From a phage, in NCBI GenBank assembly GCA_014687725.1, contig GCA_014687725.1_4094.1: DNA of 64,000 nucleotides; one strand, written 5' to 3'. The notes below the pieces were generated by a model. The model searched no databases and had not been told where the DNA came from. It saw nothing but the letters and a program-made list of their open reading frames with translations. This document shows positions 1,791 to 54,675 of the stretch, one piece after another (the first letter of the stretch is position 1; every line of letters starts with the position of its first letter). The position numbers and the translations under genes are program-made.

Positions 1791-1816
1791 GTACATCACC
1801 AAATGAGGAATACAAC

Positions 1817-2176: not shown

Positions 2177-2182
2177 CATAAA

Positions 2183-2215: not shown

Positions 2216-2241
2216 TATTTTATCGAAACGAGAGGTAATAC

Positions 2242-3896: not shown

Positions 3897-3903
3897 AACA
3901 AAA

Positions 3904-3936
3904 GGGTTGACTTCGGTCGGCCCTTTTTGCTATAAT
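3904..3936 (+). promoter_or_regulatory. terminator/promoter element (copy 3)
   Basis: GGGTTGACTTCGGTCGGCCC + TTTTT + TATAAT. Confidence 0.6.
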
Positions 3937-3964
3937 TATTTCATCAACTGATGAGGATAACGAA

Positions 3965-4735: not shown

Positions 4736-4802
4736 TTACATATGTTGACAGTACTACCATCGTGTAGTACTATAACTTAATATTCACCACCGGAGATACG
4801 AT

Positions 4803-6478: not shown

Positions 6479-6846
6479 TGGAAATTGCTCTTATTATCTT
6501 AACTGCTATGTTGTTTATTAGTACTGTGGTTATAATTGGTAAATTCTTTTGTGTATCATTTTTAGAAACGGTATACGATGAAATTGCTGATGATTATGAA
6601 CTACAAGCCGGATTTTTCATTACGTATTGGCTTAGTTTATTTTGTCTAGTCATTGCTTGGATTTTACATATCTTTAAATGGGGTATGGTAGACGGTGATC
6701 CTATTATGGCAATTATTGTTCTAGTGTTTGGTATCCTTGGTGGTGCAGTGCATAATCTAATGGTTATCTGGCAAACTGTTCAATATGTTTTGGTTCCCTA
6801 TTTCGAAAAGATGCACAGTACAATTAAAAAACGTAAACGAGGTTAG
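6478..6846 (+). CDS. small multipass membrane protein, family M (6/8)
   Basis: Hydrophobic; C-terminal KKRKRG like previous. Confidence 0.5.
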   Translation: MEIALIILTAMLFISTVVIIGKFFCVSFLETVYDEIADDYELQAGFFITYWLSLFCLVIAWILHIFKWGMVDGDPIMAIIVLVFGILGGAVHNLMVIWQTVQYVLVPYFEKMHSTIKKRKRG

Positions 6847-6847
6847 T

Positions 6848-7210
6848 ATGAACGGGATAGAATTATCTTTCGTTGGTCAATTACTAGTAATGGCGTATAC
6901 ATTTATCTTCTCACTGAATGCATTCGTGTGCATTGGGAAGTACTTCCATAAGCGACCATTATCAAATATATATGATGTAATCCAAAAGAGATATAGTCCA
7001 GCATATACTGTGTTGGGTACAGTATTCAATTTTGGTTTTATTGTATTAATAATTGGACTGTTCACATCCTCTTTGAATACAATAACCTTCGGTCTTATGA
7101 TATGTTCATTGGTATTAGCCGTAATTATATGTTGTTTAGTACTGCACCTTGTGGTACTATTGTATATAAAGATCTCTGAAATCCACCAACGTTTGGGTAT
7201 GAGGAAATAA
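6848..7210 (+). CDS. small multipass membrane protein, family M (7/8)
   Basis: Start moved from track 6785 to in-frame ATG 6848 right after previous stop. Confidence 0.5.
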   Translation: MNGIELSFVGQLLVMAYTFIFSLNAFVCIGKYFHKRPLSNIYDVIQKRYSPAYTVLGTVFNFGFIVLIIGLFTSSLNTITFGLMICSLVLAVIICCLVLHLVVLLYIKISEIHQRLGMRK

Positions 7211-7211
7211 T

Positions 7212-7583
7212 ATGAGTTACCGTGAGATATTTTCCATTATTTCAATTATTATGTTCAGTACTGGAACACTGGTATGGTTATTATACTTCTTCTGTATTAA
7301 TCCAGTGTATAATATGTTATGTAATATTAAATCAAGTGCCGGATATATCACTTTTATGGTCTTTATGGGATATTATTGTCTAAGCATTTTAGGTGTTGTT
7401 TTGGTTGTTATATTTGATGTGGGACCAAATAGTGATGGTATGGAAATACATGAATTAATAACCATGTTTGGATGTATGATACCAACAGCACTACTGTTTG
7501 TAGCTACTGGTAGTGGATTGATAAAATTATATAATTATTTAAAATCCATTCATAATTCCATTCATAATAAGCGTATGTCATAA
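7212..7583 (+). CDS. small multipass membrane protein, family M (8/8)
   Basis: Hydrophobic; GAGGAAATAATATG start context. Confidence 0.5.
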   Translation: MSYREIFSIISIIMFSTGTLVWLLYFFCINPVYNMLCNIKSSAGYITFMVFMGYYCLSILGVVLVVIFDVGPNSDGMEIHELITMFGCMIPTALLFVATGSGLIKLYNYLKSIHNSIHNKRMS

Positions 7584-7587
7584 TAAA

Positions 7588-7613
7588 AATCCAGTACTAT
7601 TAAGTACTGGATT
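7588..7613. terminator. perfect 11-bp inverted repeat hairpin AATCCAGTACT-atta-AGTACTGGATT
   Basis: Perfect palindrome between membrane array and next gene; no T-run, so terminator assignment tentative. Confidence 0.35.
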
Positions 7614-7624
7614 AATAAGGAGTT

Positions 7625-8287
7625 ATGATGAAAACAAAATTAGGTTTGTTTTATAAAAATTATTTCGTTAAACAGCGTAAATTTATAAAAAAATATTTCT
7701 CTGGTGAGAAGTCTAGTCCTATAATTTTTAAAAGACCAAGTTATAATACTTACTTAGCTGGTGCTAAACAGTCTAAGAAATTTATTACTCTTTTAAATAA
7801 AAACAAAATTAAAGCTTCTTATGTTGAAACGAGAAGAAACTCATCAATAACTCCTGGTGATTTTATTGAGTACGGATGTTTCAATATTAAGTACAATGAT
7901 AATACATACTTTATGGATATTGATTGTAATACATCCAATCTTTTTAACATTGTAGTAAATCCATTAAAACAATATAATGTTTATGGTGATTCTATTATCA
8001 AATTAATCAAAAACAAAGATAGCTTTGATTTTGAAATAAATGTTTTAGATGATAATTTTGACGAAGTACCAGTAAACCCTGAAATCTGTGATATTTTAAA
8101 CAGTTTAAAAGGTAGTACCTACAATATATCATCTGATTTAATGTTTCAGTACTCATTAATCCATAAAGATATTGAAAAGTATATTGAATGCTCCAAAATT
8201 TTGAATTATCTTTACGATGAATTTAAAAAGAGTTCTAAAATAACTGCATACACTTTGTACAATATTCCTAAAATGGTGAATCTTTGA
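7625..8287 (+). CDS. hypothetical AT-rich protein carrying family-C signature (LMFQYSLIHKD)
   Basis: ATG after AGGAG; motif matches EEYFQxSLVxD family in 54-64 kb. Confidence 0.5.
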   Translation: MMKTKLGLFYKNYFVKQRKFIKKYFSGEKSSPIIFKRPSYNTYLAGAKQSKKFITLLNKNKIKASYVETRRNSSITPGDFIEYGCFNIKYNDNTYFMDIDCNTSNLFNIVVNPLKQYNVYGDSIIKLIKNKDSFDFEINVLDDNFDEVPVNPEICDILNSLKGSTYNISSDLMFQYSLIHKDIEKYIECSKILNYLYDEFKKSSKITAYTLYNIPKMVNL

Positions 8288-9420
8288 CAAATACAGTACT
8301 GGCAACTCCACCGTCTGTAATATATTGTCCAGTACTGTAAATTTGTATACCATCGGTTAAGTAAGTTCTGTATAAAGTTGCTGTAACATATACGTTATTC
8401 ATATTCATCTCTATTGGTAGTACACATTTGGTATAGGCCGACACATCTGTTTGTGTACCTATACCCAATTGACCTGCGTTATCGCCTGTGTTATAACCAG
8501 TTGCGTAAACACCTAATGAAGTTATAATATGATTAGAAAAATATGAATAACCCACACTGCTTCTTATTATATCACCTGGTGCTTGTGTTGTTTGTCTTAA
8601 CGAAATATATGTTTGTGATGTAGAACCATTTGCTAACTGACCAAAGTACTGTCCACCACCATGATATGCAAATAATTTATTAGTACTATTATTACTTGCT
8701 ATAGCAAAAGCGAAGTAACTTGAGTTTGTTGTATAATCTTTCACCGTATAGGTATTAGTTATTTGAGAACATAACGTGTACTTTGAATATAACGTCATGT
8801 CGGTTGTACCTACGCCTGATATTGCACCAGTATAATACAATCTCCCATCGGTTCCAATAAATCCTTGCATAAGAAAATTTGCCAGTATTTTGGATGGTGT
8901 TACTCCAGTAGGTACTGTTCCTTGTACAAATGATGAAAGTGAATCGGTACTTCTACCATTTCCCAGTTGTCCATAACTACCATAACCAGTATTCCATATC
9001 GTGTTGTCTGTACATAATACGCTTAATGCACCTGCACTAACTGCAATTTGTTTTATTGTTTTTCCTAGGGCTGTTATTCTATCAAACACTATCTTTGCAG
9101 AAGCCCACGTAGTAGACTTATCAGTTGATAAACCCAATGATGCACCATTCCCAGCGTACCACATCGTATTATCTTTCTTTTTTATTAAAGTTGACTCATA
9201 CCCGCACCCATATATCTTCTACGTTTGTATTGCATAAAACCCATTGGGTCTGTGTTATAATATTACCTATACCCATTTGCCCAAACTCTTGAGAGCCTCT
9301 ACTGTATAGTGTCCCGTCTGACATAAGGGCAAAAACTGTCGTATCAGATGAAGATATTTTGGTAACAGTAGGGGGTAGGTTCTTTTTTGATGATGTGATA
9401 ATTCTTCCAAAGGGTAGCAT
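8268..9420 (-). pseudogene. frameshifted MLPFGR-family RCC1-like propeller paralog (1/13)
   Basis: N-terminal ORF 9196-9432 (MLPFGRI...DIWVRV*) and C-terminal ORF 8268-9164 join by a 1-nt shift in a GGG run near ~9204-9210 to give DIW-CGYESTLIKKKDNTMWYAG, matching gene 2. Confidence 0.5.
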
Positions 9421-9492
9421 TGTATCCTCCAAATGTAAATCGTTATTATATTTAGGACAAAAAAATGCCAGTACAAGGCACTGGCATAAAAT
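9421..9492 (-). promoter_or_regulatory. intergenic terminator hairpin + TATAAT + GGAGGA SD unit
   Basis: Minus strand: TGCCAGT..ACTGGCA hairpin + T7 run, then TATAAT and GGAGGA. Confidence 0.45.
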
Positions 9493-20121: not shown

Positions 20122-21231
20122 TTATTTTGGTAAATCAATTTTAGTAAAGACTGCAACATCCTCGATTGCACCTGGAATGGCGTAATACGATCCAGTACTA
20201 TACACATCTCCATTTTTGGTTAATATCGATGTCAAACCATCACTAAAAAGAACATCTCTAATCTCACTAACTTCAACGGGTAATTGTAAATTGGTAGCAC
20301 TATATATAGCACCAGTTTGAGAATTGTTTAATCCCAAACCACGGTTCGCCCCAACACCCTTCTGATATGTACTAGTAATTACCATTTGTGTAGCAGTATT
20401 TAATGCAGGTGAATTCGTCATAAACAACGGAGAACTATTAGGCAAAGTACTTACAGGAACTGCACGGAATGTAGTCGTACCTGAACTAAGAAAGTTTGGA
20501 GTTTGACCACATACGAAATATGATGTACCATTATAGTAATTTAATGCATTACCACCAATGGCTGCATCGATTACACCAGAACTACGCAATCCCCAAGTGT
20601 TAATTTGTGTTTGGTTCCCCGTACCATGCTGCCCACTACTATTCCATCCAGAACTATATAGCTTATTATCTAATGTAAGATACATACTATCATTCGCATT
20701 GGTCATTACTTTACGAACGTTCGTAGCACATTGAGTTAATGTATAAATTGATGATGAACCAATACCCAAAGAACCACGATATCCATTATCTCCTGCACCA
20801 TAGAGTACTGAATTAGTGCTAAGTACAAATATTAAACCATTTGTACATACAATATTAGCAATTTCACTTACTGGTATAGCATTGGTAAACCAATTAGTCC
20901 TTTCAACTAATACAGTACTGTAAGAAGTAGTCGTAGAAGATGAGAACCAGTACGTTTGACCTGATGTCCATATAGTATTATCATTTTTAATAATAACAAG
21001 TGTACGATCACCCACGAAAAAATTAGAAACATCTGCACTTACTAATATCCATGAAGATACCGTGTTGGTATTACCATTTCCAGATTCACCACCTTGATTT
21101 CTACCTATGTAATATAAATCATGTGAATCAGTCAATAAGAATTGACCTTGTGTAGAAGCACCAACTTTAATTATATTTTTAGGACCAGGTACAATATTTC
21201 CGTACTTAACCATTCTTCCAAAAGGTAACAT
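20122..21231 (-). CDS. RCC1-like repeat propeller protein, putative receptor-binding protein (11/13)
   Basis: Start set at MLPFGRMVKYGN; motif NSSGQHGTGNQT. Confidence 0.72.
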   Translation of the reverse strand: MLPFGRMVKYGNIVPGPKNIIKVGASTQGQFLLTDSHDLYYIGRNQGGESGNGNTNTVSSWILVSADVSNFFVGDRTLVIIKNDNTIWTSGQTYWFSSSTTTSYSTVLVERTNWFTNAIPVSEIANIVCTNGLIFVLSTNSVLYGAGDNGYRGSLGIGSSSIYTLTQCATNVRKVMTNANDSMYLTLDNKLYSSGWNSSGQHGTGNQTQINTWGLRSSGVIDAAIGGNALNYYNGTSYFVCGQTPNFLSSGTTTFRAVPVSTLPNSSPLFMTNSPALNTATQMVITSTYQKGVGANRGLGLNNSQTGAIYSATNLQLPVEVSEIRDVLFSDGLTSILTKNGDVYSTGSYYAIPGAIEDVAVFTKIDLPK

Positions 21232-21304
21232 AAATCCCTCCTTATTCATTATACTATATTTAATACAAAAAAGAAAAGCCAGCATCAAGTACTGGCATAT
21301 CAAA
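21232..21304 (-). promoter_or_regulatory. intergenic terminator + promoter/SD unit
   Basis: Same conserved element. Confidence 0.5.
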
Positions 21305-22453
21305 TCACTGCAAAAATGACATATCGACTTCGGTATAATTAAGAACGTTCTGTCCAGCAATACCTCCCATTACTACAATTGAAGCCCCACAATAATATAA
21401 CTTCGAAGTGTCAGTAAGTATAAGTGAACCAGATGGGGTGCGTACCAAATTACACGAAGTATTAAACGAAGTATATGAAGGGGTATAAGAGTACTGATTA
21501 ATATTATTACCAACACCTAATTGACCAGACGAGTTGCTTCCAGATGCATAAAGTACTTCATCACCTTTAACTATATGTGACGCCATGTTACCAACACAAG
21601 TATATAAACTATAAACTCCTGAACTCAATAATGTTGGAGTTTTGTATTGTATATCTGTAGATGAAGAAGTACCACCTGTGCCAAATTCGTTCCCGTATTG
21701 TGCACCGAACTGTTTACCACATGCGTACAAATTATTATCTGATTTAATAAAAAATGTACTCTGATAACTTACATCAAAATCTATAACATCCGAAGCAATC
21801 ATCGTCACCCCAGTAATAGAAGTTTGATTACCTGTACCTAACTGATAGTAATAGTTAAAACCACAACCCCATAAAGTATTATCTTCTTTTAGGTATATGT
21901 TACCAACTGCCTTTTTAACCGAAGTTATAGTATCTACCCTTTTGAATGTGTTAAAAGAATTAATGTTTGTACCATCACCAAATGATGATAGGTTAGAGTT
22001 ATTGTTAGCTCCACAACAATACAATGTACCATCGTTTGTTATCAAATTTACCTTCATATCATTAAAACTACTCATGTATTTTATATCAGAAACATTAATA
22101 CCACCTGATGTTATCCACGTAGTACATTCCGTCCACAAAGTTTTTCTATCAGTTACACCAGTGAATGCCTTCGTGTTACCAGTGATAAAAACTTTTCCAG
22201 TACCTTTCTCTTCATACAATTGACAATCACTACTGTTATTTTCCAATAGAACTCGTTTAACATTCTCCGCACTAAGAATAAATTTACTCGACGAAACACC
22301 TGTTCCAGTACCCCAATTCGTCGCAGAAGATGCATACAACTTATCAGTATAAGTATCATGAAGATACATGGAATCACTGGAATATATTTTAAAACGTCCA
22401 TCATCACCAGGGGCAATATTCCCGTACTTAATCATTCTAACAAAAGGTAACAT
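21305..22453 (-). CDS. RCC1-like repeat propeller protein, putative receptor-binding protein (12/13)
   Basis: Start set at MLPFVRMIKYGN; motif NSSGQLGVGNN. Confidence 0.75.
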   Translation of the reverse strand: MLPFVRMIKYGNIAPGDDGRFKIYSSDSMYLHDTYTDKLYASSATNWGTGTGVSSSKFILSAENVKRVLLENNSSDCQLYEEKGTGKVFITGNTKAFTGVTDRKTLWTECTTWITSGGINVSDIKYMSSFNDMKVNLITNDGTLYCCGANNNSNLSSFGDGTNINSFNTFKRVDTITSVKKAVGNIYLKEDNTLWGCGFNYYYQLGTGNQTSITGVTMIASDVIDFDVSYQSTFFIKSDNNLYACGKQFGAQYGNEFGTGGTSSSTDIQYKTPTLLSSGVYSLYTCVGNMASHIVKGDEVLYASGSNSSGQLGVGNNINQYSYTPSYTSFNTSCNLVRTPSGSLILTDTSKLYYCGASIVVMGGIAGQNVLNYTEVDMSFLQ

Positions 22454-22555
22454 ATTTCCCTCCTTATTCATTATATCATATTTACCCCATAAAGAAAACC
22501 CTTGACATCCTTTCAGTACTGGTGTACTATAGAAGGAATATAAGGAGAACTACAC
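22454..22555. promoter_or_regulatory. divergent promoter region between minus-strand MLPFGR cluster and plus-strand family-A array
   Basis: Plus strand TTGACA, 17 nt, TACTAT then AAGGAG before 22556; minus strand TATAAT-like box and AAGGAGG. Confidence 0.45.
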
Positions 22556-26983: not shown

Positions 26984-27620
26984 ACTAGAGTACAGGAATG
27001 TTCACGTTTAATCAAGAACGTAGCAGTACTGATATGCCACTAAGTAGGCAGAGGAAGTCTGCCGTACTTTGTAGTTTCCAAGCTCCTTTTCCATTTTTCA
27101 AATTACATCAAATGTAATCAAAAGTAATCACGCAATGATTAGTACTGAATTATTACTTTCACCTTAATTTCAATTACCCCTTTACCCTTCGGGGTAAAAT
27201 TCCATTACCCCTTGAGGCTCCAGCAAAAAGTTGGTTAGTACTCCATCCTAAATCTCGATCCTAAAAATTTTGGAGTACCTATGAAATAAAAGTTGGATCT
27301 TCGAAAGTTGAAATTTACGTTGGGACGTTTATGATTTGTGGGATATAATGATGTTTGTAGTCGGGTAGTTCTCAAGAATATCAGTACTGAATGGTGAAAG
27401 AAAGTTATTGACATTATGATTCAGTACTGTATAATGTTCTACATAGAGAGATGAGTTGCTGCGAACAATTCATTTACTCTACCTCCTGTCGTGAGACAGT
27501 ACAGAAAAGATAGTTCCTCCTGTGGTGGTACATCTTTTTGAACCTCATATGAAAATCGTAATAACAGTACTGATATTAACAGAATGGTGTCAGTACTGAT
27601 TTTAATCTAAAGCATTATGC

Positions 27621-27639
27621 CACCAGCTTGTGCTGGTGG
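27621..27639. repeat. perfect inverted repeat CCACCAGC-ttgt-GCTGGTGG (Chi octamer in both orientations)
   Basis: Direct reading; hairpin-capable palindrome containing Chi. Confidence 0.6.
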
Positions 27640-27785
27640 ATTCCCTCTAACAGTATTCAGTACTACATGATGGTCTTCATCCTCCTAGGGTAACATAGTG
27701 AGGGCTATGATGGCAGTACTGAATACTCCCTTTCAAAAGATAGATCTATGGTATAGTACTGACGGATTTTGGGTGTAGTTACCCT

Positions 27786-27945
27786 GGATGGATTTTGGAC
27801 GTAGATATGTCTAGTCCTCCAGAAGTCTGGAAGTAAAGATGGCTATCCATCTAGACGGCTAAACGGCTAGATTTCTGGATGGCTGGATGGCTAGACGTTT
27901 GGACGGCTAGATGGTTACACGTCTGGAAGTATAGACGGCTAAATC
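27786..27945. repeat. iteron-like cluster of short direct repeats (GACGGCTARA, GGATGGCT, TCTGGAAGTA) followed by AT-rich tract
   Basis: At least 8 imperfect repeat units in ~150 bp, then aaaattttattttgtttttt. Confidence 0.55.
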
Positions 27946-28685
27946 AAAATTTTATTTTGTTTTTTCCAATAGTTCCCCTACCGCGTGGGGATAGTTTCCC
28001 CGCAGTATCTGGAGTTAGATTTTTCTGAATCTGGAATCATTATCTTATAAACTGGGGGCAATGTCAACGGCCTGGACGGATATTTTTAAAAATTTTTTCA
28101 GTACTGAATTTTGGGCGTAACTATGCACCCGGTGGGCTTGAGTCTTTCTCGACTTGATGGAACTATTATACAGTACTGGAAAAATAAAGCAATACCCTGG
28201 AAGCAAAAAAGTTTTAATTAATTTGCTTGCTATCCTGGGCCGGACTATGGTACTATATTTCAGTACTGAGAAAGTGCTTTTACCTGCTAGGGTGCGGGAG
28301 TGTATCCTTTTTAAATTTACTGAATTTTGGGCGTAGTTCCGCACCCTGTGGGTTAGTGCCTTGTGTCCGGCTTATGTAGTAATTATACGCTTTTTCAGGA
28401 TCAAGTCAATACCTAAAAACAAAATAATTGAAAATAATTTAACGCGTTTAAACGGCCCGTAAAGCCCTGGAATGATTGGAATGGTGCAAATGTATAGCTT
28501 AGGTGTATTAATGCGTTAGAATGCGTCTGAGGCCGTTTTATGGGGTGTAGTAGTGATTTGGTTGATTCAGTACTGAATGATAGTACTACTATATAGAAAG
28601 ATAGTTCCCCTGGATGGTTGCAGTACTGAAAGATAGTTCCCCTATATAGAAAGAAAACTATTTTAAAAGTATTTGTAGAAAGTAC

Positions 28686-28713
28686 TTGCAAAGTATTGGG
28701 AAAGGTGTAGAAT
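28686..28713 (+). promoter_or_regulatory. early-type sigma70-like promoter (type 1)
   Basis: AGTACTTGCAA -35, 16-nt spacer, TAGAAT -10, then gTTTTACATcgag and 5' hairpin; this architecture recurs >20 times in 28.7-47 kb. Confidence 0.5.
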
Positions 28714-28770
28714 GTTTTACATCGAGACGGGGGATACGCTCCCGACTCACTTTTAAAAGAGATTAAAACG

Positions 28771-33292: not shown

Positions 33293-33775
33293 ATGGCTAA
33301 TGTAAAATCATTTCTGAAAGCACTGATTTCTAACGATACTGTTATTGCTGCTGAATTGCTGGCTGACCTGGATAATGATACCATGAAAGCAGTACGCAAC
33401 AATTTTAACATTGCTTACAGTGAAGCGAAAGAACTACAAGCCAAAAAGGTAGCAGAACTGGAAGAACAGAAAAAAGCCCGTGAAGCAGAACTGCAAGCAA
33501 CAATAGAAAGTATTCAGGCGGCGGTGTCTGGTTTAGATCTGGAAGTGGTTATTGAAATGGCACATAAAGCCCTGGCGGTTAAGTACGGTGAAGATAAGCC
33601 GGAATCTAAGCCTAAAAAATGGATTCAAGAACGTGTTACGGTTGTCCTTGATAACGGGGAAGAACATTTGATTCCTGTACGCGGTAACTGCATTGCGGTA
33701 GTACTGGATGCAATCAAAGAAAGCGGTATGACTCGCGAGGAATGGATCGAAGCTCACCGCAAAGTTGAAGCATAA
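33293..33775 (+). CDS. hypothetical protein (160 aa), coiled-coil-like central region
   Basis: Start moved to MANVKSF after GAGGA; K/E/A-rich heptad-like stretch. Confidence 0.55.
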   Translation: MANVKSFLKALISNDTVIAAELLADLDNDTMKAVRNNFNIAYSEAKELQAKKVAELEEQKKAREAELQATIESIQAAVSGLDLEVVIEMAHKALAVKYGEDKPESKPKKWIQERVTVVLDNGEEHLIPVRGNCIAVVLDAIKESGMTREEWIEAHRKVEA

Positions 33776-33796
33776 CAATTAAAGTACTGAATCACT

Positions 33797-33823
33797 AGCC
33801 CACTGTATAAGTGGGCTTTTTTG
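33797..33823 (+). terminator. intrinsic terminator
   Basis: AGCCCACT-gtata-AGTGGGCT + TTTTTT. Confidence 0.65.
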
Positions 33824-34059
33824 TGTTTATCGTTTACCAGGCCACCAGCACCGCCTAGAATCGATTCTAACGCATTAAACTGATTATCTGATGCATCGCC
33901 CTAGCTGGTGGCGTTAAGGTCGTTAGAATGCGATTGAGGACGTTTAAAGTATTTTGCAAAAAGTAATAAAAAGTACTTGCACGATTAAGAGATTAGCGTA
34001 TAATGTTTTACATCGAGAGGGGGAAACGGTTCTCCTTCCAAATCAAAGGAATCAAAACA

Positions 34060-34287
34060 ATGGCTATCGTAATCGCTTATGTAACTGGTACTACTGGCAC
34101 TTCTTCTACTGTTGCTGTAATTACCAACAAGAAAGGTGCGGAATTACATTCTGCAATGGATACCTGGGCGGTAAATGAGTTCGGTCAGTGGGCAAGTGTA
34201 GCATATGTTGAAACCTATCAAGTGCCAACCATTAGCTTAACGGATCTCGGTGTAGATCGTATCCTTTGCCTGGATGAATTAAATTAA
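34060..34287 (+). CDS. hypothetical early protein
   Basis: Start moved to MAIVIAY downstream of leader hairpin. Confidence 0.5.
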   Translation: MAIVIAYVTGTTGTSSTVAVITNKKGAELHSAMDTWAVNEFGQWASVAYVETYQVPTISLTDLGVDRILCLDELN

Positions 34288-34373
34288 AAAAGTACTTGCA
34301 AAGTAAATCAGATAAAGTATAATACATTACATCAAGGGGAGAAATGGTTCTCCCTGATAATGAGGAAACTAAT

Positions 34374-38191: not shown

Positions 38192-38220
38192 AGCCCACTG
38201 GTTAACGCTGGTGGGCTTTA
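38192..38220 (+). terminator. intrinsic terminator containing a Chi octamer
   Basis: AGCCCAC-tggttaacgct-GGTGGGCT + TTT; GCTGGTGG at ~38207-38214. Confidence 0.45.
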
Positions 38221-38290
38221 ATCATTTACCCTATACAATGCCAGTACTAAACCGTTTAACTCGTTAGAATGCATTACAGGACGTTTAACA

Positions 38291-38488
38291 ATGATTAGCA
38301 TGAAATCAGTACAAAAACAAATTGATACATTATCAAAAATTAAACGTAAACAATACTCATTAGAATATACAATCAATGGTAACTATCATCTAATGAAAGA
38401 GAATAATTTCATAGTCATTGATGAATCATTGCAAGTTATTAGTATAGTACTGAAAGCATTAATCAATGACAGAAAAAAGTTAAAATAA
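38291..38488 (+). CDS. hypothetical AT-rich small protein
   Basis: Track ORF; weak start context. Confidence 0.35.
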   Translation: MISMKSVQKQIDTLSKIKRKQYSLEYTINGNYHLMKENNFIVIDESLQVISIVLKALINDRKKLK

Positions 38489-38589
38489 TCTATTGACAAA
38501 TTATGCCAGTACTGGCATAATACTTACATCAAGACGAGAACGTCACTAACCCATAGGGTGCACAAATGTAGCTGTCTAATATTGATCAA

Positions 38590-38640
38590 AAAATGATCTG
38601 ATCAATACTTGATCAATTTGCGTAAAGTAGTATAATTCTA
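38590..38640. repeat. cluster of TGATCA/GATC motifs
   Basis: tgatcaaaaaatgatctgatcaatacttgatcaa in a ~240-bp gene-free stretch. Confidence 0.4.
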
Positions 38641-38819
38641 TGCAGTTGGTTAGACGAAAGGTTATGATTAGTAGTGGAAGTGTATAAAAATTTTCATGGT
38701 GTGGTGATCCGCACATATGGGGATGAATATGTCGTGTCGTATGGATTGGAAAAAGTAAGAACAAGTAATATACTTGTCGCGTTACAGTACTATAGTATTT
38801 TTATAATGAGGTTAAAATA

Positions 38820-39575: not shown

Positions 39576-39764
39576 ATGGAAAACTTATCAAGTATTTTAG
39601 TACAAGATGATTTCGGTAATCCTGGAAGTGCTATCATTGTTCGGGGTAATAAAGCAACATTTGTTATTGCTGGTGGACCTGTACAGCGTAGCATTAAAAA
39701 TAATGCTGTTACCATTAATAATGTACGCTATCGCTTAGATAAAGAATTGATTCATAAACTTTAA
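39576..39764 (+). CDS. hypothetical early protein
   Basis: Promoter + hairpin + AAGAGGAAATAAAAATG. Confidence 0.5.
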   Translation: MENLSSILVQDDFGNPGSAIIVRGNKATFVIAGGPVQRSIKNNAVTINNVRYRLDKELIHKL

Positions 39765-40534: not shown

Positions 40535-40635
40535 ATACGCATAGAAACAAATCAGCCCACAGGGTGCATAAATGTATCTATTGTTTGCTGGTGGCTAGTA
40601 CTATCAAGTACTGAAAACTATTTTTAAAAAAGTAC

Positions 40636-42905: not shown

Positions 42906-43148
42906 ATGATTACTTTAGAAAAACGTATCAAAGAAACTACATCGCTGGTGGAACTGTTAACAGTACTGAAATGCCGTACTACTCGGTTTAGTACACCGGA
43001 CTTTATTAATATGGTTGATGTTAACGGTCGTTATCGCATTGCAGTAGAACAAGGAACAGCGAAAGTATTCAGTACTAAAAACACTAAGGAAGTGATTCAT
43101 GCTGTAAGTGTTAAAAAAGTAGTTGCCATTGATAGTAAAGTACTGTAA
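42906..43148 (+). CDS. hypothetical protein, tandem duplicate pair member
   Basis: Same promoter/leader as previous gene. Confidence 0.5.
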   Translation: MITLEKRIKETTSLVELLTVLKCRTTRFSTPDFINMVDVNGRYRIAVEQGTAKVFSTKNTKEVIHAVSVKKVVAIDSKVL

Positions 43149-44290: not shown

Positions 44291-44563
44291 ATGTCCAGCT
44301 ACTCCGCTACTATGATCATTAAAGATATGAACGGTAATCCTACTTCTGCTGGTGGATCATTTGGAAACATTAATTTAGATGGTCGGTTATCCATGCAATC
44401 AGCCATCGATGCAGCGAAAGAAGTTTTTAAGAATGAATGTACTGTTAGTAAGCTGGATTATATGGGATTCGCTATCGAGAAAACTAATCGTTTTGTGAAC
44501 TACAAAAATCCACTGATGATTGATACTAACCTGAAAGCTAACGAAGTGGGGTACTTATTATGA
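44291..44563 (+). CDS. hypothetical early protein
   Basis: Promoter + hairpin + AAAGGAAACAAAATTATG. Confidence 0.55.
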   Translation: MSSYSATMIIKDMNGNPTSAGGSFGNINLDGRLSMQSAIDAAKEVFKNECTVSKLDYMGFAIEKTNRFVNYKNPLMIDTNLKANEVGYLL

Positions 44564-45168: not shown

Positions 45169-45393
45169 ATGGCTAACTTTGATGAACTGATGCGGGAAGT
45201 AGCTAACCTGGCAGAAGAGAAGAAATCATTCGATTCTATCTATAACACCGCTCACCGTGATTCAGTACTGGCATGTACTCAGGATCAAAAAGATGAACTA
45301 ATCGCCACATATCATGAAGCATGGAAGTACTACCGCCAATGGGAGAAAGAAGAAAGCGAGTCTACCATCAACGGCATCAATAATCTAATCTAA
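45169..45393 (+). CDS. hypothetical early protein
   Basis: Promoter + hairpin + AAAGGAGTAATAAAATG. Confidence 0.55.
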   Translation: MANFDELMREVANLAEEKKSFDSIYNTAHRDSVLACTQDQKDELIATYHEAWKYYRQWEKEESESTINGINNLI

Positions 45394-45469
45394 AAGTTTT
45401 ATTTCAGTACTATTGACATAGCTTGATAGTACTGATGTAATAACTTTACTAACTACAAGGGGAAACATA

Positions 45470-45727
45470 ATGGAACAGTTCACACAATATCGGGTAAATC
45501 CTCAAGCTATGGCCTACGTAGAAGACCATAAAACGTTACCAGTACTAACACCAATTAAAGGCCATATCTATCGTGCAATGTCATGGAATACGGCCCAGGA
45601 TGGATATACTACCGCTGGCGTGGGTATGTATTGCGGGAATGGTGAATGGTTTGATCCAAATAATCCGGTAGCCATTGACAGTACTGAAAAAATGAAATGG
45701 GCCGACTACATCGAAGATATTTCATAA
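45470..45727 (+). CDS. hypothetical early protein
   Basis: Type-2 promoter; ATG after AAGGGGAAACATA. Confidence 0.55.
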   Translation: MEQFTQYRVNPQAMAYVEDHKTLPVLTPIKGHIYRAMSWNTAQDGYTTAGVGMYCGNGEWFDPNNPVAIDSTEKMKWADYIEDIS

Positions 45728-45816: not shown

Positions 45817-46017
45817 ATGTCTATCGCTATCGCCCTGGTTGAAGTACTGAAAGAAGCTAAAGCCAACCTTATCGATGTACAGATTAAGGAATTACAAAAT
45901 GGTTTAATCGGCTGTACTTGTACCGCTGGTGGAGCGGCAGACTATCGGGAATTCGAATCACTTGAATCGATGGTCCGTTATCTTACCATGATCGTAGAAG
46001 ATTGGAGAATCATCTAA
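45817..46017 (+). CDS. hypothetical early protein
   Basis: Promoter + hairpin + TGGAGTAAAACATTATG. Confidence 0.5.
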   Translation: MSIAIALVEVLKEAKANLIDVQIKELQNGLIGCTCTAGGAADYREFESLESMVRYLTMIVEDWRII

Positions 46018-46069: not shown

Positions 46070-46263
46070 TACGCATAGACAAAAACTAGCCCACTGGGTG
46101 CAGGAGTGTATCTAAAATATATAGTTAATAACGGTGAGTAACTATCTGCTGGTGGGGTGAAAACTATTAATAAAAAAAGTATTGACAAAGTATATCAGTA
46201 CTGCAATAATGTATCTCGTAGGGCGGCAATGGTGCGACGGCCCACAAAGTTAGGAGATTCAAA

Positions 46264-47459: not shown

Positions 47460-47614
47460 GAAATAAAAGGGATTGGACTATGGCAAAATGCGTAGGGGGC
47501 TAAAGGGCGGGTAACCTTAGCGACTTCGATAAAGGGGTATTACGAATAAAATGTTATTGACTTTTTATATGAATCGTATAAAATATGATTGATATTAATT
47601 TTAAGGGAGTCCCT

Positions 47615-47812: not shown

Positions 47813-48009
47813 AAATGCGTATTTTAAATAAAGAAGAATATCAATCACTGTTACGTAAAAACTTCACAAAGATTTATAATACAGACACACACGTAGAACG
47901 AATGGAGTTATACCTTTTGATTACATTGGGAACAAACTATCAGGGTAGATGGGTGTGGCAATATATGGATACATTGAAAAATAAAATATTGTCCACGAGG
48001 AAACAATGA
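47809..48009 (+). CDS. family-B small protein (2/29)
   Basis: ATGA overlap; LGTNYQGRWV. Confidence 0.55.
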   Translation: MKMRILNKEEYQSLLRKNFTKIYNTDTHVERMELYLLITLGTNYQGRWVWQYMDTLKNKILSTRKQ

Positions 48010-48215
48010 AAACTATAACACGAACCCAATCATACGGTCTTATCTTGAAATACATGGACTTAATGGTGGATATCAGCAAAGACCTGCCTAAAACTGAAAT
48101 TGAAGTTGCAAGAGCAGAGATCCGCATGTTGGCTGTACTGAACACAAACCATCAGGAAGATTATGTTGAAGAATGGATTCGATTTTTAATAGAAGATATT
48201 AAGAGTAAACTATGA
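48006..48215 (+). CDS. family-B small protein (3/29)
   Basis: ATGA overlap; LNTNHQEDYV. Confidence 0.55.
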   Translation: MKTITRTQSYGLILKYMDLMVDISKDLPKTEIEVARAEIRMLAVLNTNHQEDYVEEWIRFLIEDIKSKL

Positions 48216-48427
48216 TTATTATAGAAAACTCATATCAATATACTAAACGCATCGCTGCCAGACAACTTGAAATCCTCATAATATACGAAGAGACTTCTGA
48301 TTTAAACTTAGCCGAGGTATTGGAAAATGAAATACTTTTGGGTGCATTCTTGGGAACAGACTATCAGGAGTATTATGAGGAAAAGTATTTGTCATCTCTA
48401 GAGAAATACATCAGGAGCAAATTATGA
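48212..48427 (+). CDS. family-B small protein (4/29)
   Basis: ATGA overlap; LGTDYQEYY. Confidence 0.55.
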   Translation: MIIIENSYQYTKRIAARQLEILIIYEETSDLNLAEVLENEILLGAFLGTDYQEYYEEKYLSSLEKYIRSKL

Positions 48428-48636
48428 TTATATTAACACCAGAAGAATATAAGAAACGTTTCAATTCTGTCCAGACTGAAATATTACTTATATACCTTTC
48501 AAATGCAGACCTTAACTTATCAAGGGCAATGGAGAAGGATTTACTTATGGGTGCATTTTTGGATACAGACTTTCAGGAGTATTATGTAGGGAAATACTTA
48601 ATTGAACTTCAGAACTACATTAAGAGTAAACTATGA
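48424..48636 (+). CDS. family-B small protein (5/29)
   Basis: ATGA overlap; LDTDFQEYYV. Confidence 0.55.
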   Translation: MIILTPEEYKKRFNSVQTEILLIYLSNADLNLSRAMEKDLLMGAFLDTDFQEYYVGKYLIELQNYIKSKL

Positions 48637-48860
48637 AACATTTAAGTAATATTGAGAAGATGAGAATTATCATTGATGCATTAAACAAATACGATACCCT
48701 TTTACAAATAAAAGGTTTAACTCGATTGGAACACAAGATAAACACCACCGATGTACGCATGTTGGCTGTACTGGGGACGAACTTTCAGGAAGAGTATGTT
48801 GTTGCACACATAGTTGCACTCACTAATTACATAATGGACAAATGTAATGAACATCATTAA
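48633..48860 (+). CDS. family-B small protein (6/29)
   Basis: ATGA overlap; LGTNFQEEYV. Confidence 0.55.
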   Translation: MKHLSNIEKMRIIIDALNKYDTLLQIKGLTRLEHKINTTDVRMLAVLGTNFQEEYVVAHIVALTNYIMDKCNEHH

Positions 48861-49071
48861 TAACTTTGAATACGAGGCCCGTGCTAAGAGTGCCAGAAAA
48901 AAAGAGAACACCATTTACTTCACTATGATGTACTTACAATGGACTGAAATTGAAGAAAAGGTTGCTGAAGTATGGATGTTGGAATTCATGGGGACGCAGT
49001 ATCAGAATAGGTTTGCGGGTGAGTATATCAATGTTCTTATGAAACAAATAGAAAGAAAGGAAAAGAACTAA
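48847..49071 (+). CDS. family-B small protein (7/29)
   Basis: MGTQYQNRF motif. Confidence 0.5.
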   Translation: MNIINNFEYEARAKSARKKENTIYFTMMYLQWTEIEEKVAEVWMLEFMGTQYQNRFAGEYINVLMKQIERKEKN

Positions 49072-49229
49072 TGGTTTTCATTAACATATCTGACCAACTC
49101 GATACTAAACTAGAAGTCGAGCAGAGTGAGGGATGGATGCTGTACTTTCTTGGAACTTCTCATCAGAATTTTTATATCCATGAACACATAGTTGCACTCA
49201 AGAATTACATTATGGACAAATGCAAATGA
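49071..49229 (+). CDS. family-B small protein, short member (8/29, 52 aa)
   Basis: Below track cutoff; LGTSHQNFY motif; TAATG coupling. Confidence 0.4.
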   Translation: MVFINISDQLDTKLEVEQSEGWMLYFLGTSHQNFYIHEHIVALKNYIMDKCK

Positions 49230-49483
49230 AATACTTAACACAAGATGAATATTCACTTAGAATTCGAAAGCTCACCCCAGAAGCAAGAGTAATCTACGAT
49301 GACCCCACCCTTACATGGAACCAAATGCGAGCTAAAGTTAATGAGCTATGGTTGCTGTACTTTATGGGGACTCAATATCAAGATAAGTTTTGCAAAGAAT
49401 TTGTCGATCAATTAATGAATGTTATACAGGATAAACTAGATGAATATTGGCTCGCAAAACATGAAGACTTTATCAGGAGTTGA
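49220..49483 (+). CDS. family-B small protein (9/29)
   Basis: MGTQYQDKF; start may be ATG at 49226. Confidence 0.5.
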   Translation: MQMKYLTQDEYSLRIRKLTPEARVIYDDPTLTWNQMRAKVNELWLLYFMGTQYQDKFCKEFVDQLMNVIQDKLDEYWLAKHEDFIRS

Positions 49484-49712
49484 GTATCAAACTGCCCTCT
49501 TCTCTCTTATTAACACCCTTAGAAAAAACAATGCATTACATGGTGCACCTGAAGTGGATGTTATCAACGGTGATGTTTATCTTATGAAATTCATTGGAAC
49601 AAACTATCAAGATCTGTTCATTCAACGATACTTGGCAGCATTAAGAAACCAAATCCAATATAAAACCCGTCAAGCCCAAAGAGAATGGAAGAGACAATGC
49701 GACAAAGACTAA
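49440..49712 (+). CDS. family-B small protein (10/29)
   Basis: IGTNYQDLF; start uncertain (alternative ATG ~49461). Confidence 0.45.
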   Translation: MNIGSQNMKTLSGVEYQTALFSLINTLRKNNALHGAPEVDVINGDVYLMKFIGTNYQDLFIQRYLAALRNQIQYKTRQAQREWKRQCDKD

Positions 49713-49945
49713 ATCACAAAATGTATTGTAAACTATTACAAACACTGGCACAGAAACACTATGACACCGTATCTGAAATATTACCCTATGATATCATGCG
49801 TTTAATTCATAGTGAGGCCGAGATGCTTGTACTGATGAGAGGGACTGATAAAACAGCAATAGCCAGATCGATTGAGCAATATATTGATGCACACTGCCAA
49901 CACATGAGAACCGAAATCTGGAGGAAAGAGAATGATAATCCTTAA
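49685..49945 (+). CDS. family-B-like small protein (11/29)
   Basis: Divergent (RGTDKTA); start uncertain (alternative ATG ~49697). Confidence 0.45.
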   Translation: MEETMRQRLNHKMYCKLLQTLAQKHYDTVSEILPYDIMRLIHSEAEMLVLMRGTDKTAIARSIEQYIDAHCQHMRTEIWRKENDNP

Positions 49946-50147
49946 TGAGTATCAGTATCATTGGAGGTTACAAACTATCAAATCAAAAGTGTATAGTATT
50001 GTGTTAAACAAATCTATTGCACAAGAGGACAAATGTGTTATAATAGCTGAAATGAAGTTGGGTGTATTCGTAGGGACAAACTATCAAAACATCTACACTG
50101 ACGTATTATTAAGTTCCTTACGTAACAAGGTGGTATCCAAAATATGA
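49932..50147 (+). CDS. family-B small protein (12/29)
   Basis: VGTNYQNIY. Confidence 0.55.
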   Translation: MIILNEYQYHWRLQTIKSKVYSIVLNKSIAQEDKCVIIAEMKLGVFVGTNYQNIYTDVLLSSLRNKVVSKI

Positions 50148-50362
50148 GAAATTTACAAGGCTTTGAATACATCAGACTCCTGAAAACATGTGGAAGCAGA
50201 AGGAGAATGATATCAAGCGATAAGAGCATCCAAGCTAACCTTAAGCACGCACTAGTAACTGAACTCTATGTAGGTGCACTCTTAGGCACAAACTATCAAC
50301 AAATGTATGTAGATCTATGGATTGACGCTCTACAGAAAGAGGTTAAAAGTAAATGCAAATGA
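50144..50362 (+). CDS. family-B small protein (13/29)
   Basis: ATGA overlap; LGTNYQQMYV. Confidence 0.55.
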   Translation: MRNLQGFEYIRLLKTCGSRRRMISSDKSIQANLKHALVTELYVGALLGTNYQQMYVDLWIDALQKEVKSKCK

Positions 50363-50571
50363 TTAATTTAAGTAAAGACGAATTTTATGTTATACTGGCG
50401 AAAACTTATCCAGCACGTAAGGCCGTTTATGATAGTCACATTATTGAACCCTCAAAGAAGTTGATTTTAGTAAATGAGATAAAGATGCTTTCAGTCTTAG
50501 GAACAAACTATCAAGAGAATGCTGTACTGATGTTAATTGATGCCCTCCAGCGAGAGGTTAAACGTAAATGA
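50353..50571 (+). CDS. family-B small protein (14/29)
   Basis: LGTNYQENAV. Confidence 0.55.
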   Translation: MQMINLSKDEFYVILAKTYPARKAVYDSHIIEPSKKLILVNEIKMLSVLGTNYQENAVLMLIDALQREVKRK

Positions 50572-50798
50572 AAATGATTCATTTAACTTACCATGAATAT
50601 CAAAAACGTTTAAATGCATCCAGAGATATAAGGATTCAAATATTCAATAACAAAAGATTGAAGCCTGATATCAGAAAAATCAAAATTATAGAAGCAGAGT
50701 TATGCAACTTTCTAGGGACCAACTATCAGGCAGGTAAGGTAAAAAACTATCTTAGAGAACTAATGAATAGTATTGAAAATAAATGTAAGGGTAATTAA
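50568..50798 (+). CDS. family-B small protein (15/29)
   Basis: ATGA overlap; LGTNYQAGKV. Confidence 0.55.
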   Translation: MKMIHLTYHEYQKRLNASRDIRIQIFNNKRLKPDIRKIKIIEAELCNFLGTNYQAGKVKNYLRELMNSIENKCKGN

Positions 50799-50799
50799 C

Positions 50800-51039
50800 A
50801 TGAAAATGATTAAATTATCTCAAGCAAAATATAAAGAACGCCTGGTGAAAATTGCACCTGGACTTAATGAAATCCATCACGGAGAAGTCATTAAACACGG
50901 AAATAAGATGATTATGAAACTTGAGTTAAAGGTGGGTGCATTCATAGGAACAAACTATCAGGAGTATTATGTAGATGAATACATAATCGCACTTAAGAGA
51001 TACATTGGAAGAAAACTATATCTACAAACTAAAGAATAG
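50800..51039 (+). CDS. family-B small protein (16/29)
   Basis: Start moved to MKMIKL; IGTNYQEYYV. Confidence 0.5.
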   Translation: MKMIKLSQAKYKERLVKIAPGLNEIHHGEVIKHGNKMIMKLELKVGAFIGTNYQEYYVDEYIIALKRYIGRKLYLQTKE

Positions 51040-51068
51040 TATTGAAAATAAATGTGAGGTTGATGAAC

Positions 51069-51332
51069 ATGCAAATGATCAATTTAAGTAAAGATGAATA
51101 TACCGAGCGTATGACAAAAATTACGCACAAACGTAATACAATCTATCACAACCCAGAAATTCAACACAGTAAGAAAATGATTATGATGCGTGAGTTAAAG
51201 ATGGGTGTATTCTTAGGAACAAACTATCAAGATACAGAAGTAAATCGCTTAATCGCGGAGTTACTACTGGAAATCAGAGGTAAGCTGTACTTTCATCAAA
51301 TGACCCAACCACTGAGGTGTACTAAGAAATGA
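51069..51332 (+). CDS. family-B small protein (17/29)
   Basis: Start moved to MQMINL; LGTNYQDTEV; upstream ~45-bp segment duplicated from 50761-50810. Confidence 0.5.
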   Translation: MQMINLSKDEYTERMTKITHKRNTIYHNPEIQHSKKMIMMRELKMGVFLGTNYQDTEVNRLIAELLLEIRGKLYFHQMTQPLRCTKK

Positions 51333-51544
51333 TCAACATCACATTGCAAGAAAGATTCATCCGAATCAACTATGCAATTACCAAATTAGATGCTACTATA
51401 GGATTCCAAAGTCTACCATACAAAACCAGATTGTTATTAGAGTGTGAAGCTAAGTTGGGTGTACTGTTAGGGACGCAACACCAACAACGATATGTGGAAA
51501 TCTGGATTGACCTTTTAACCCAAAATATATATGAGAGAATGTAA
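51329..51544 (+). CDS. family-B small protein (18/29)
   Basis: ATGA overlap; LGTQHQQRYV. Confidence 0.55.
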   Translation: MINITLQERFIRINYAITKLDATIGFQSLPYKTRLLLECEAKLGVLLGTQHQQRYVEIWIDLLTQNIYERM

Positions 51545-51775
51545 ATGCAAAATGAAATGATATACTTAACGAATGAAGAATTTCAAGAGAAGATGTTAAA
51601 AACCAAAAACATTACTCTTAAGTTCGTTCCAAATCAATCAATATCTGAAGTATCTGCAAATGTATTGTTTCAGAAGCTACCATACGTTCTTGGAACTGAT
51701 AAACAAGAATTTATGGTTCAAAATATGATTGAACATCTTATAATGAGTATTAAGGAAAAAGTTAATGCAAAATGA
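51545..51775 (+). CDS. family-B small protein (19/29)
   Basis: MQNEMIYLT...; LGTDKQEFMV. Confidence 0.55.
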   Translation: MQNEMIYLTNEEFQEKMLKTKNITLKFVPNQSISEVSANVLFQKLPYVLGTDKQEFMVQNMIEHLIMSIKEKVNAK

Positions 51776-52019
51776 AATGATATACTTAACCTATAATGAA
51801 TACGTCGAGAGATTAGTTCGTGCCAAGAGATATACCAATAAACGTCCAATTGACCTAAACCAAACCCCAGCAGAAAGGAGTGCAGAAGTATTATTCCAAT
51901 CACTACCATATCTTCTGGGAACTGATAGACAAGAGGAATATGTTGCACGTATGATTAGATATCTTAAAATCACTATTAAGGAAAAAGTAAATGCAAATGA
52001 AATACTTAACAGACGATGA
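51765..52019 (+). CDS. family-B small protein (20/29)
   Basis: Same MQNEMIYLT N-terminus as previous (recent duplicate); LGTDRQEEYV. Confidence 0.55.
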   Translation: MQNEMIYLTYNEYVERLVRAKRYTNKRPIDLNQTPAERSAEVLFQSLPYLLGTDRQEEYVARMIRYLKITIKEKVNANEILNRR

Positions 52020-53971: not shown

Positions 53972-54305
53972 TATACAACTCAAGGTATATAAATCATTTG
54001 AACATACATATATCAAAAGTAGTCTATGTAGAGATGTAATGGATTACAAGGGTAAGCCATTCACAATTACCTATGATTCTTATGTTAGTGATTTATATAT
54101 ATCATTTGTTAATTACGAAAATAAAATATACAAGCACGTTGATATTAAAGATTTAAGTACTTTATCACCAGAGGAATACTTTCAGGAATCATTAGTATGG
54201 GATTTAGAGTTTCCTATGCCATTAGTACATAAGATGATAGTACTAATGAAAGAATCTAAACAGGAGCCTAATGGTGATTATGAAGAACACACAGTTGAGT
54301 ATTAA
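53961..54305 (+). CDS. family-C protein (EEYFQxSLVxD motif)
   Basis: Motif EEYFQESLVWDLEFP. Confidence 0.55.
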   Translation: MKTNIQLKVYKSFEHTYIKSSLCRDVMDYKGKPFTITYDSYVSDLYISFVNYENKIYKHVDIKDLSTLSPEEYFQESLVWDLEFPMPLVHKMIVLMKESKQEPNGDYEEHTVEY

Positions 54306-54675
54306 AAGTACTGATAATACTAAGAGTTATACAAGCTCAAGTACTGTGACAATCGAAGTGAATTCTATTAATGCTGGTAATGCAGTAGATAAGTTCTTTA
54401 TTGCTCAAGGGTACAGGAAAGATATTCATCAATATTGTTCAGTATATGGGGAGTACAATTCTACTGAAGATATAATTTATTGGTCAACACATCAAGATTA
54501 TATAACTAAAATTGGCGTTCCAGATGTTAGTACTTTATCTGAAGAAGAATACTTTCAGTACAGCTTAGTACATGATGTACCTATACCTTTAGGGTTAATC
54601 AAGGGTATGCAGGAAGAGGTTCATAAGCTTAAATCCATGAGTTCAGGTACTTTCATTAGAACAGTGCAATACTAG
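54280..54675 (+). CDS. family-C protein
   Basis: Motif EEYFQYSLVHDVPIP; start taken at MKNTQL. Confidence 0.5.
   Translation: MKNTQLSIKSTDNTKSYTSSSTVTIEVNSINAGNAVDKFFIAQGYRKDIHQYCSVYGEYNSTEDIIYWSTHQDYITKIGVPDVSTLSEEEYFQYSLVHDVPIPLGLIKGMQEEVHKLKSMSSGTFIRTVQY

Follow-up and report, generated by a model that had tools for sequence, protein, structure and literature searches.

Opposed Chi octamers behind an apparent inverted repeat in an Asteriusvirus-like jumbo phage, and a polarised Chi array in its predicted terminal repeat

The sequence analysed here is a 64,000-nucleotide stretch of phage DNA (contig GCA_014687725.1_4094.1, hereafter the window), and our subject is a 96-bp site at positions 33840-33935, together with the copies of the Chi octamer, GCTGGTGG, that occur there and across the surrounding region. 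At 88–94% identity, the window matches Asteriusvirus genomes, 121Q and PBECO4 among them, and the phages of the matching records have E. coli and Salmonella as hosts; judged by its sequence, it is part of a jumbo coliphage of about 350 kb, an Asteriusvirus like 121Q and PBECO4. A direct terminal repeat (DTR) of about 20.5 kb, occurring once in the window, is predicted on the plus strand from 27043 to about 47520 by homology to phages with mapped ends: position 1 of vB_Ec-M-J and position 1 of fEgEco12 both align to 27043, and the DTR ends of these two phages map to about 47517-47521. The annotated DTR of vB_Ec-M-J is 21,525 bp long, that of fEgEco12, determined with PhageTerm and restriction digests, is 20,993 bp (PMC13070987), and that of Sharanji is 20,668 bp (PMC11895373). 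The DTR is a block of small plus-strand genes, 65% coding, with a G+C content of 0.38 compared to 0.33–0.35 in the flanks, and the 96-bp site lies about 6.8 kb inside its left end.

The site is an intergenic spacer: gene 33293-33775 with its terminator precedes it, and the early promoter of gene 34060-34287 follows. In and beside it are these features:

33797-33817, plus strand: intrinsic terminator of gene 33293-33775, AGCCCACTgtataAGTGGGCT followed by a T run, from a terminator scan
33842-33849, minus strand: Chi, reading CCACCAGC on the plus strand; one of two left-facing Chi in the DTR, about 6.8 kb from its left end
33856-33869, both strands: perfect 14-bp palindrome TAGAATCGATTCTA, the right half of which overlaps an inverted CGTTAGAAT box at 33864-33872
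33904-33911, plus strand: Chi facing the right end, eighth in order from it among the nine of this kind
33921-33945, plus strand: CGTTAGAAT box (CGTTAGAATGC-N5-AGGACGTTT), with CGTT(A/T)-like pentamers phased at about 10 bp from 33912
33972-34004, plus strand: predicted early-type promoter module AGTACTTGCAC-N16-TATAAT for gene 34060-34287, from its match to the consensus

A preliminary description of this DNA had placed the site between two terminators, of which our scan recovered only the upstream one; on the downstream side lies the promoter module. Its statement that the site carries Chi in both orientations was correct, as was the mention of related motifs near 28510 and 38255, where exact copies of CGTTAGAATGC begin at 28514 and 38262. 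A Pfam search of seven neighbouring open reading frames (ORFs) gave no match and PHROGs assigned the neighbouring ORFs to families of unknown function only, so that the flanking genes, which we judge to be real, give no functional clue. An IMG/VR search for related loci with the upstream protein returned phage 121Q only. One further ORF, 33954-34178, which lies downstream of the box and has a TTG start, was judged not to be real; it crosses the promoter and overlaps gene 34060 in another frame.

The feature first described as one large imperfect inverted repeat proved to be two perfect 9-bp inverted repeats. The first pairs GCCACCAGC (33841-33849) with GCTGGTGGC (33904-33912) across a spacing of 54 nt, and the second pairs ATTCTAACG (33864-33872) with CGTTAGAAT (33921-33929) across 48 nt. 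The four arms follow one another in the order A B A' B', interleaved and not nested, so that a single hairpin or cruciform containing both pairings is impossible and the two pairings are mutually exclusive. Nor is any composite unit inverted, because the left half, read on the minus strand, has the box followed by Chi, and the right half has Chi followed by the box. The apparent large inverted repeat is two independent opposed Chi octamers plus two opposed copies of a DTR-specific 9-mer box, and arises as a by-product because two short motifs, selected independently, are each present in both orientations. Seven loci of the real 64-kb window share the configuration of at least two inverted-repeat axes of at least 9 bp per 131 nt, and the site is not unique in this respect. 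Further 131-nt windows with at least two perfect axes of this length lie at 7561-7771, 38401-38691, 45381-45531, 54121-54311 and 63461-63651.

The spacer was aligned across 13 genomes (the window, EC22.5-2, vB_Ec-M-J, PBECO4, SP27, Turkey5, slurp01, TH47, A4, 121Q, G17, CMSTMSU and EJP2). The plus-strand Chi at 33904-33911 is invariant in all 13, including EJP2, in which the upstream sequence is unrelated, and it is also present in fEgEco12. The minus-strand Chi at 33842-33849 is intact in eight of the 13 as well as in fEgEco12; EJP2 lacks it, 121Q has CCGTCAGC in its place, and slurp01, A4 and G17 have CCACTAGC. CGTTAGAATGC at 33921 is intact in eight of the 13 genomes, with its partner ATTCTAACG unchanged, and the palindrome at 33856-33869 varies among relatives, reading TAGAAACGATTCTA in several and having a 12-nt deletion in G17. 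The terminator is kept in 12 of 13 relatives and the promoter core is invariant in the 13 genomes. Conservation is much higher from about 33870 up to the promoter than in the left half of the site, and in EJP2 this right-hand block has different genes around it.

Since 96 bp hold a 14-bp palindrome as well as two perfect 9-bp inverted repeats, and since only 0.04% of dinucleotide shuffles have two or more such axes per 131 nt, one might suspect a cruciform or an RNA-structured regulatory inverted repeat. Pairing of its arms, at the DNA level or within the transcript, would then control the adjacent genes or create a structural site for recombination. We consider this very unlikely. Only one of the interleaved pairings can form at a time, with loops of 48–54 nt, and the site folds no better than its shuffles, either as DNA (z = -1.43; 22 of 200 shuffles as good) or as RNA (z = -0.68; 46 of 200). 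In the alignment the left Chi arm and the right box arm are each broken in five of 13 genomes, without compensating changes, and most of the palindrome is deleted in G17. A pair-count test of covariation over both helices gave a result equal to its control, with 331 of 500 shuffles reaching at least the observed value, and a search of 33500-34300 against Rfam 15 returned only sub-threshold, terminator-like matches (33740-33824), with none inside 33840-33935. As a structure, then, the repeat is not conserved in relatives, and the arm order, the fold scores and the lack of conservation and covariation led us to drop the suggestion of a cruciform or regulatory palindrome.

The Chi octamers themselves are far more frequent than expected. 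The window contains 14 copies compared to 0.53 expected, and 11 of these are in the DTR, for which Markov models of orders 0 to 4 predict 0.17–0.39. Besides the two sites in the spacer, the DTR copies are:

27620-27639, both strands: palindromic Chi pair CCACCAGCttgtGCTGGTGG (27620 on the minus strand, 27632 on the plus strand), 577 bp from the predicted left end; it includes the Chi closest to that end
38207-38214, plus strand: Chi in hairpin AGCCCACTGGTTAACGCTGGTGGGCT, non-coding
39669-39676, plus strand: Chi, coding (GCT GGT GGA, Ala-Gly-Gly)
40587-40594, plus strand: Chi, non-coding, upstream of a promoter module
42944-42951, plus strand: Chi, coding
44348-44355, plus strand: Chi, coding
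45925-45932, plus strand: Chi, coding
46148-46155, plus strand: Chi nearest the right end, about 1.37 kb from it, non-coding

The three copies outside the DTR (15649, 15907 and 16162) all lie in one Gly-rich gene, 15591-16346, spaced 255–258 bp apart within Gly-rich repeats. The selected unit in the DTR appears as an exact octamer: all 24 one-mismatch variants summed occur twice, and no consensus extending beyond the eight bases was found around the 11 sites. Seven of the 11 are non-coding, though 65% of the DTR is coding (P = 0.05). The same concentration is seen in related genomes. In the complete 351,992-bp genome of EC22.5-2, the 21.3-kb DTR equivalent has 11 Chi and the other 330.7 kb have 17, giving densities of 0.517 versus 0.051 per kb (binomial P = 3e-7). 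All 11 Chi are kept in the DTR of vB_Ec-M-J, with one in the next 38.5 kb; fEgEco12 has 12 within its DTR (1-20993) and none in the next 24 kb; and 121Q, G17 and CMSTMSU have 10–11 per DTR each, with individual positions gained or lost. This turnover at a near-constant count looks like selection on the number of sites more than on their position. The palindromic pair is conserved in vB_Ec-M-J (588/600), fEgEco12 (578/590), 121Q, G17 and EC22.5-2, and the fEgEco12 homologue of the Chi at 46148 lies 1,368 bp from the DTR end. A scan of IMG/VR for CCACCAGC-N4-GCTGGTGG returned 46 mostly unrelated small contigs and 121Q.

An excess of this kind could be a functionless by-product of composition, of codon usage (Ala-Gly-Gly, Leu-Val) or of terminator stems (GTGGGCT). 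Consistent with such an origin, the three non-DTR copies do lie in a Gly-rich gene, the DTR copy at 38207 overlaps a hairpin stem, and the G+C content of the DTR is slightly above that of its flanks. However, we find this explanation hardly credible, because Markov models up to order 4 expect at most 0.4 copies, the 11 exact copies stand against two one-mismatch variants with most sites non-coding, and adjacent blocks of small plus-strand genes have 0–1 Chi in 24–38 kb.

The DTR sites are also polarised. RecBCD coming from the right recognises the top-strand sequence 5'-GCTGGTGG-3' (PMC12315714). With the ends placed by homology, the nine plus-strand Chi face the right end, the first of them 1.37 kb in, and the two minus-strand Chi, 0.58 and 6.8 kb in, face the left end, the farther one being the spacer site at 33842; RecBCD entering from these predicted ends would meet all 11 Chi from the 3' side. 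In fEgEco12 the ratio is 10 plus to 2 minus, with the minus sites at about 0.58 and 6.6–6.8 kb from the left end. More distant relatives repeat this arrangement. When compared with a 285-nt query from the spacer, which defines the extent of this comparison, the Klebsiella phage fENko-Kae01 and the Erwinia phage Hallingskeid each gave one short promoter-like match (about 100 nt and 45 nt, respectively). The PhageTerm-defined DTR of fENko-Kae01 (1-19736) contains 14 Chi, of which 12 are on the plus strand and the two at 484 and 7013 on the minus strand, with only two more in the next 30 kb, and it has a palindromic Chi pair at 484/496 (484-503), the loop of which differs from that in the window. 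The early small-gene block of Hallingskeid has 13 Chi, 11 of them co-oriented with the genes, and the next 22 kb have five. The polarity ratios are therefore 9 : 2, 10 : 2, 12 : 2 and 11 : 2 in four genomes of three lineages, and, with the three lineages taken together, the polarity is common to 32 of the 38 sites (binomial probability on the order of 1e-5).

Several fENko-Kae01 sites lie inside promoter spacers (3711, 9192, 16840 and 18721), and three of these four are exactly 2 nt upstream of the -10 element (GCTGGTGG-NN-TATAAT, TATACT or TATTAT), which suggests that Chi has been put at positions under no other sequence constraint. The window (38192-38217) and fENko-Kae01 (19339-19363) have in common a hairpin, CCACTGGTTAACGCTGGTGG, whose 3' arm contains Chi and which resembles the palindromic Chi pair in degenerate form; apart from this hairpin and the short promoter-like match to the spacer query, no match between the DTR DNA of fENko-Kae01 and the window was found.

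It is conceivable that GCTGGTGG is instead the site of a phage protein involved in packaging (a terminase, for instance), in the initiation of replication, in end binding or in partition, and that its identity with Chi is due to chance or mimicry. Clustering in the terminal repeat, where the packaging and replication signals of a DTR phage are expected, fits this proposal, as does the palindromic pair 0.5–0.6 kb from the left end in both Asteriusvirus and fENko-Kae01. Yet the selected unit is exactly the host Chi 8-mer without an extended consensus, it recurs in three lineages infecting E. coli, Klebsiella and Erwinia, the spacing is irregular and sites turn over, and the polarity fits the RecBCD entry rule. 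We therefore regard a phage-protein site as quite improbable.

The reading that we favour, and consider reasonably probable on these sequence patterns, is that the Chi sites at 33842 and 33904 are members of a terminal array that turns RecBCD entering at the genome ends from a nuclease into a recombinase. The enrichment, the exactness of the octamer, its restriction to the DTR, the polarity of orientation and the recurrence in distant relatives are established here; we infer that RecBCD is the reader of the array and that the benefit consists of end protection and DTR–DTR recombination. The packaged genome would be linear, with a DTR at both ends. Host RecBCD would load on a free end and degrade inward up to a correctly oriented Chi, at which its nuclease would be attenuated and RecA loaded on the 3' strand. 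Because this strand would be DTR sequence, it could invade the other DTR copy, in the same or a sister genome, and the outcome would be circles or concatemers, with degradation of the ends limited. The nine plus-strand Chi would serve the right end and the two minus-strand Chi (0.58 and 6.8 kb) the left. The DNA of fEgEco12 is cut by restriction enzymes as predicted in silico (PMC13070987), and so is probably not heavily modified. The paper on that phage discusses DTR recombination for circularisation in general terms and mentions neither Chi nor RecBCD (PMC13070987). The recombination hotspot raised in the preliminary description survives in this altered form, as a polarised Chi array across the DTR; the pair 33842/33904 has no special status as an inverted repeat, and the evidence supports assigning the hotspot property to the array of single octamers and not to that pair.

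Several observations weigh against a role for the array in RecBCD processing. Asteriusvirus relatives are reported to have a RecA/UvsX-like recombinase and a RecD-like protein (Sharanji, PMC11895373); the high-Chi lambdoid phages, by contrast, have no recombination module of their own (PMC12315714). Only two of the DTR Chi face the left end, and one of them, at 33842, is lost in five of the 13 aligned genomes and is thus dispensable. The orientation bias in a single genome is marginal (9 of 11, P = 0.065) and coincides with the direction in which all DTR genes are transcribed, making a transcription-linked cause of the polarity conceivable. Both ends of this phage, 27043 on the left and about 47520 on the right, are placed by homology, and the Hallingskeid count refers to an early-gene block without mapped DTR limits. 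Finally, the invariant plus-strand Chi sits in a block of about 110 nt that is conserved whole with the promoter, so that its invariance alone is no proof of selection on Chi.

This conserved block raises the possibility that 33870-34004 is a regulatory module upstream of the promoter, in which the phased CGTT(A/T) pentamers of the CGTTAGAAT box are bound by a regulator or form a weak extra promoter, the Chi at 33904 is merely embedded, and the box at 33864 is a second operator half-site. The block is the best conserved part of the spacer and moves with the promoter into another context in EJP2. In the whole genome of EC22.5-2, the CGTTAGAAT 9-mer occurs five times, always in the DTR, and two further boxes are present in the window:

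28514-28538, plus strand: second CGTTAGAAT box, in the 1.7-kb non-coding leader of the DTR
38262-38286, plus strand: third CGTTAGAAT box, just before the ATG of gene 38291-38488; contains the AGGA Shine-Dalgarno sequence of that gene

Gene 38291-38488 is supported by phrog_36844, and no credible ORF follows the boxes at 33921 and 28514. The three exact copies are at homologous positions in five relatives, and the pattern CGTTAGAATGC-N5-RGRNCGTTT has four matches with at most three mismatches, compared to 0.11 expected. As a sigma-70 promoter the box fares poorly, its TAGAAT having no credible -35 element and TAGCTK or AGTACT standing at that position; a promoter scan nearby found only a weak TTTACC-N17-TAGAAT at 33833-33861; the minus-strand Chi falls in its spacer, and 121Q and G17 have this promoter-like sequence in degraded form. 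The box might be an array bound by protein, a remnant of a leader or a weak promoter. We consider a regulatory module unlikely as the explanation of the Chi sites, since the 33921 box varies in five of 13 genomes but the Chi at 33904 in none, and since the other ten Chi and the DTR-wide enrichment would be left unexplained. Such a module would be compatible with a RecBCD-directed Chi array and does not exclude it.

The RecBCD-directed array has parallels in other phages. In P1, P7 and D6, terminal clusters of Chi have been proposed to promote RecBCD/RecA recombination between terminal repeats, circularising the injected DNA (bioRxiv 10.1101/2021.07.08.451572; Subramaniam & Smith, Adv Genet 2022). 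As in those phages, the Chi density here is above that of E. coli, the sites are concentrated at the packaged ends or terminal repeats, and they occur on both strands, with an orientation that depends on position and no preference for coding sequence. P1, however, is temperate, with a 94.8-kb genome packaged by a headful (pac) mechanism and a variable redundancy of 5–10 kb, whereas the present phage belongs to a virulent group with genomes of about 350 kb and fixed DTRs of about 21 kb to which the array is confined; and RecBCD dependence, shown for P1, is here a prediction from sequence. The LLS-type lambdoid phages also have Chi clustered toward one end with a bias to the active orientation (20 of 23 in LLS versus 9 of 11 here), but they are cos phages of 30–58 kb without recombination genes, the growth of which is enhanced by RecBCD (PMC12315714). 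The lack of recombination genes is apparently not shared by Asteriusvirus, given the RecA/UvsX-like and RecD-like proteins reported in relatives (PMC11895373), and the array described here includes two opposed pairs serving the other end. The octamer is identical to canonical E. coli Chi. On the host chromosome, in contrast, Chi is co-oriented with replication, lies mostly in ORFs and occurs at about 0.22 per kb (PMC12315714; bioRxiv 10.1101/2021.07.08.451572), compared to 0.52–0.54 per kb in the DTR, where most of the sites are outside coding sequence and the polarity is toward the physical termini of a linear genome. We found no prior description of Chi or RecBCD in the terminal repeats of Asteriusvirus or other jumbo phages in a literature search of incomplete coverage, and the papers on fEgEco12 (PMC13070987) and Sharanji (PMC11895373) gave no data on whether growth or circularisation of such phages needs host RecBCD or RecA. 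Terminal Chi arrays thus appear to be known from P1 and the LLS-type lambdoids and, as far as we found, not to have been described before for Asteriusvirus-type phages.

The organisation of the DTR genes recalls another type of element. Promoter modules of the form AGTACTTGCA-N17-TATAAT occur in 16 near-identical copies between 29143 and 46631, all on the plus strand, and every copy in the window is confined to the DTR. Often GTTTTACATC and a G-rich hairpin in the 5' untranslated region come next, and the octamers GGGAGAAC and GGTTCTCC are enriched. Promoter-early stem-loop (PeSL) elements, reportedly described by Arbiol et al. in 2010, are repeated regulatory cassettes of T4-type phages, and the repeated pairing of terminator hairpins with early-promoter modules (16 in the DTR) that separates many small ORFs resembles them, as does the occurrence of the Chi-box-promoter block among other genes in EJP2. 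The likeness goes no further than this, and PeSLs are not known to carry Chi.

Other features of the region may also be relevant to the organisation of the genome end. The palindrome AGTACT occurs 252 times in 64 kb compared to about 22 expected; it is densest at 26001-48000, and the DTR holds 130 of the copies, its most frequent 8-mers being octamers that contain AGTACT (AGTACTGA occurs 55 times). Some blocks, 48001-52000 and 56001-62000, have no AGTACT. AGTACT is abundant in fENko-Kae01 and Hallingskeid too; it is part of the promoter module, and most copies stand alone. The left-end stretch of the DTR, about 1.7 kb at 27043-28770, has no annotated gene in relatives and holds the palindromic Chi pair at 27620-27639, one CGTTAGAAT box and many copies of AGTACT; the stretch is a candidate for a region of packaging or terminus recognition. 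On the minus strand at 9493-22471, next to the DTR on its upstream side, lies a tandem series of paralogous genes of about 380–440 amino acids, which relatives annotate as RCC1-like 'regulator of chromosome condensation' or as DNA condensation proteins; gene 15591-16346, with its three Chi, falls within this stretch.

More broadly, we propose, tentatively and with somewhat less than even confidence, that the DTRs of Asteriusvirus and related Enterobacterales jumbo phages are Chi-armoured recombination arms, through which a virulent phage with its own recombinase recruits host RecBCD at its genome ends, about 9–12 sites serving the right end and 1–2 the left blocking degradation and driving circularisation or concatemerisation between DTRs. 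A DTR of this kind might also curb the RecBCD-fed acquisition of CRISPR spacers from the injected end, and the equally DTR-specific CGTTAGAAT boxes, along with the roughly ten-fold excess of AGTACT, could be additional components of a terminal-repeat organisation not yet described. If the array works as we infer, the use of host Chi as a phage asset would extend from temperate P1 and the lambdoids to virulent jumbo phages with fixed terminal repeats of about 20 kb, and it would offer a testable answer to how linear genomes of 350 kb survive RecBCD and circularise. Many Asteriusvirus isolates have been proposed for phage therapy, and the recBCD status of the host could affect their efficiency.

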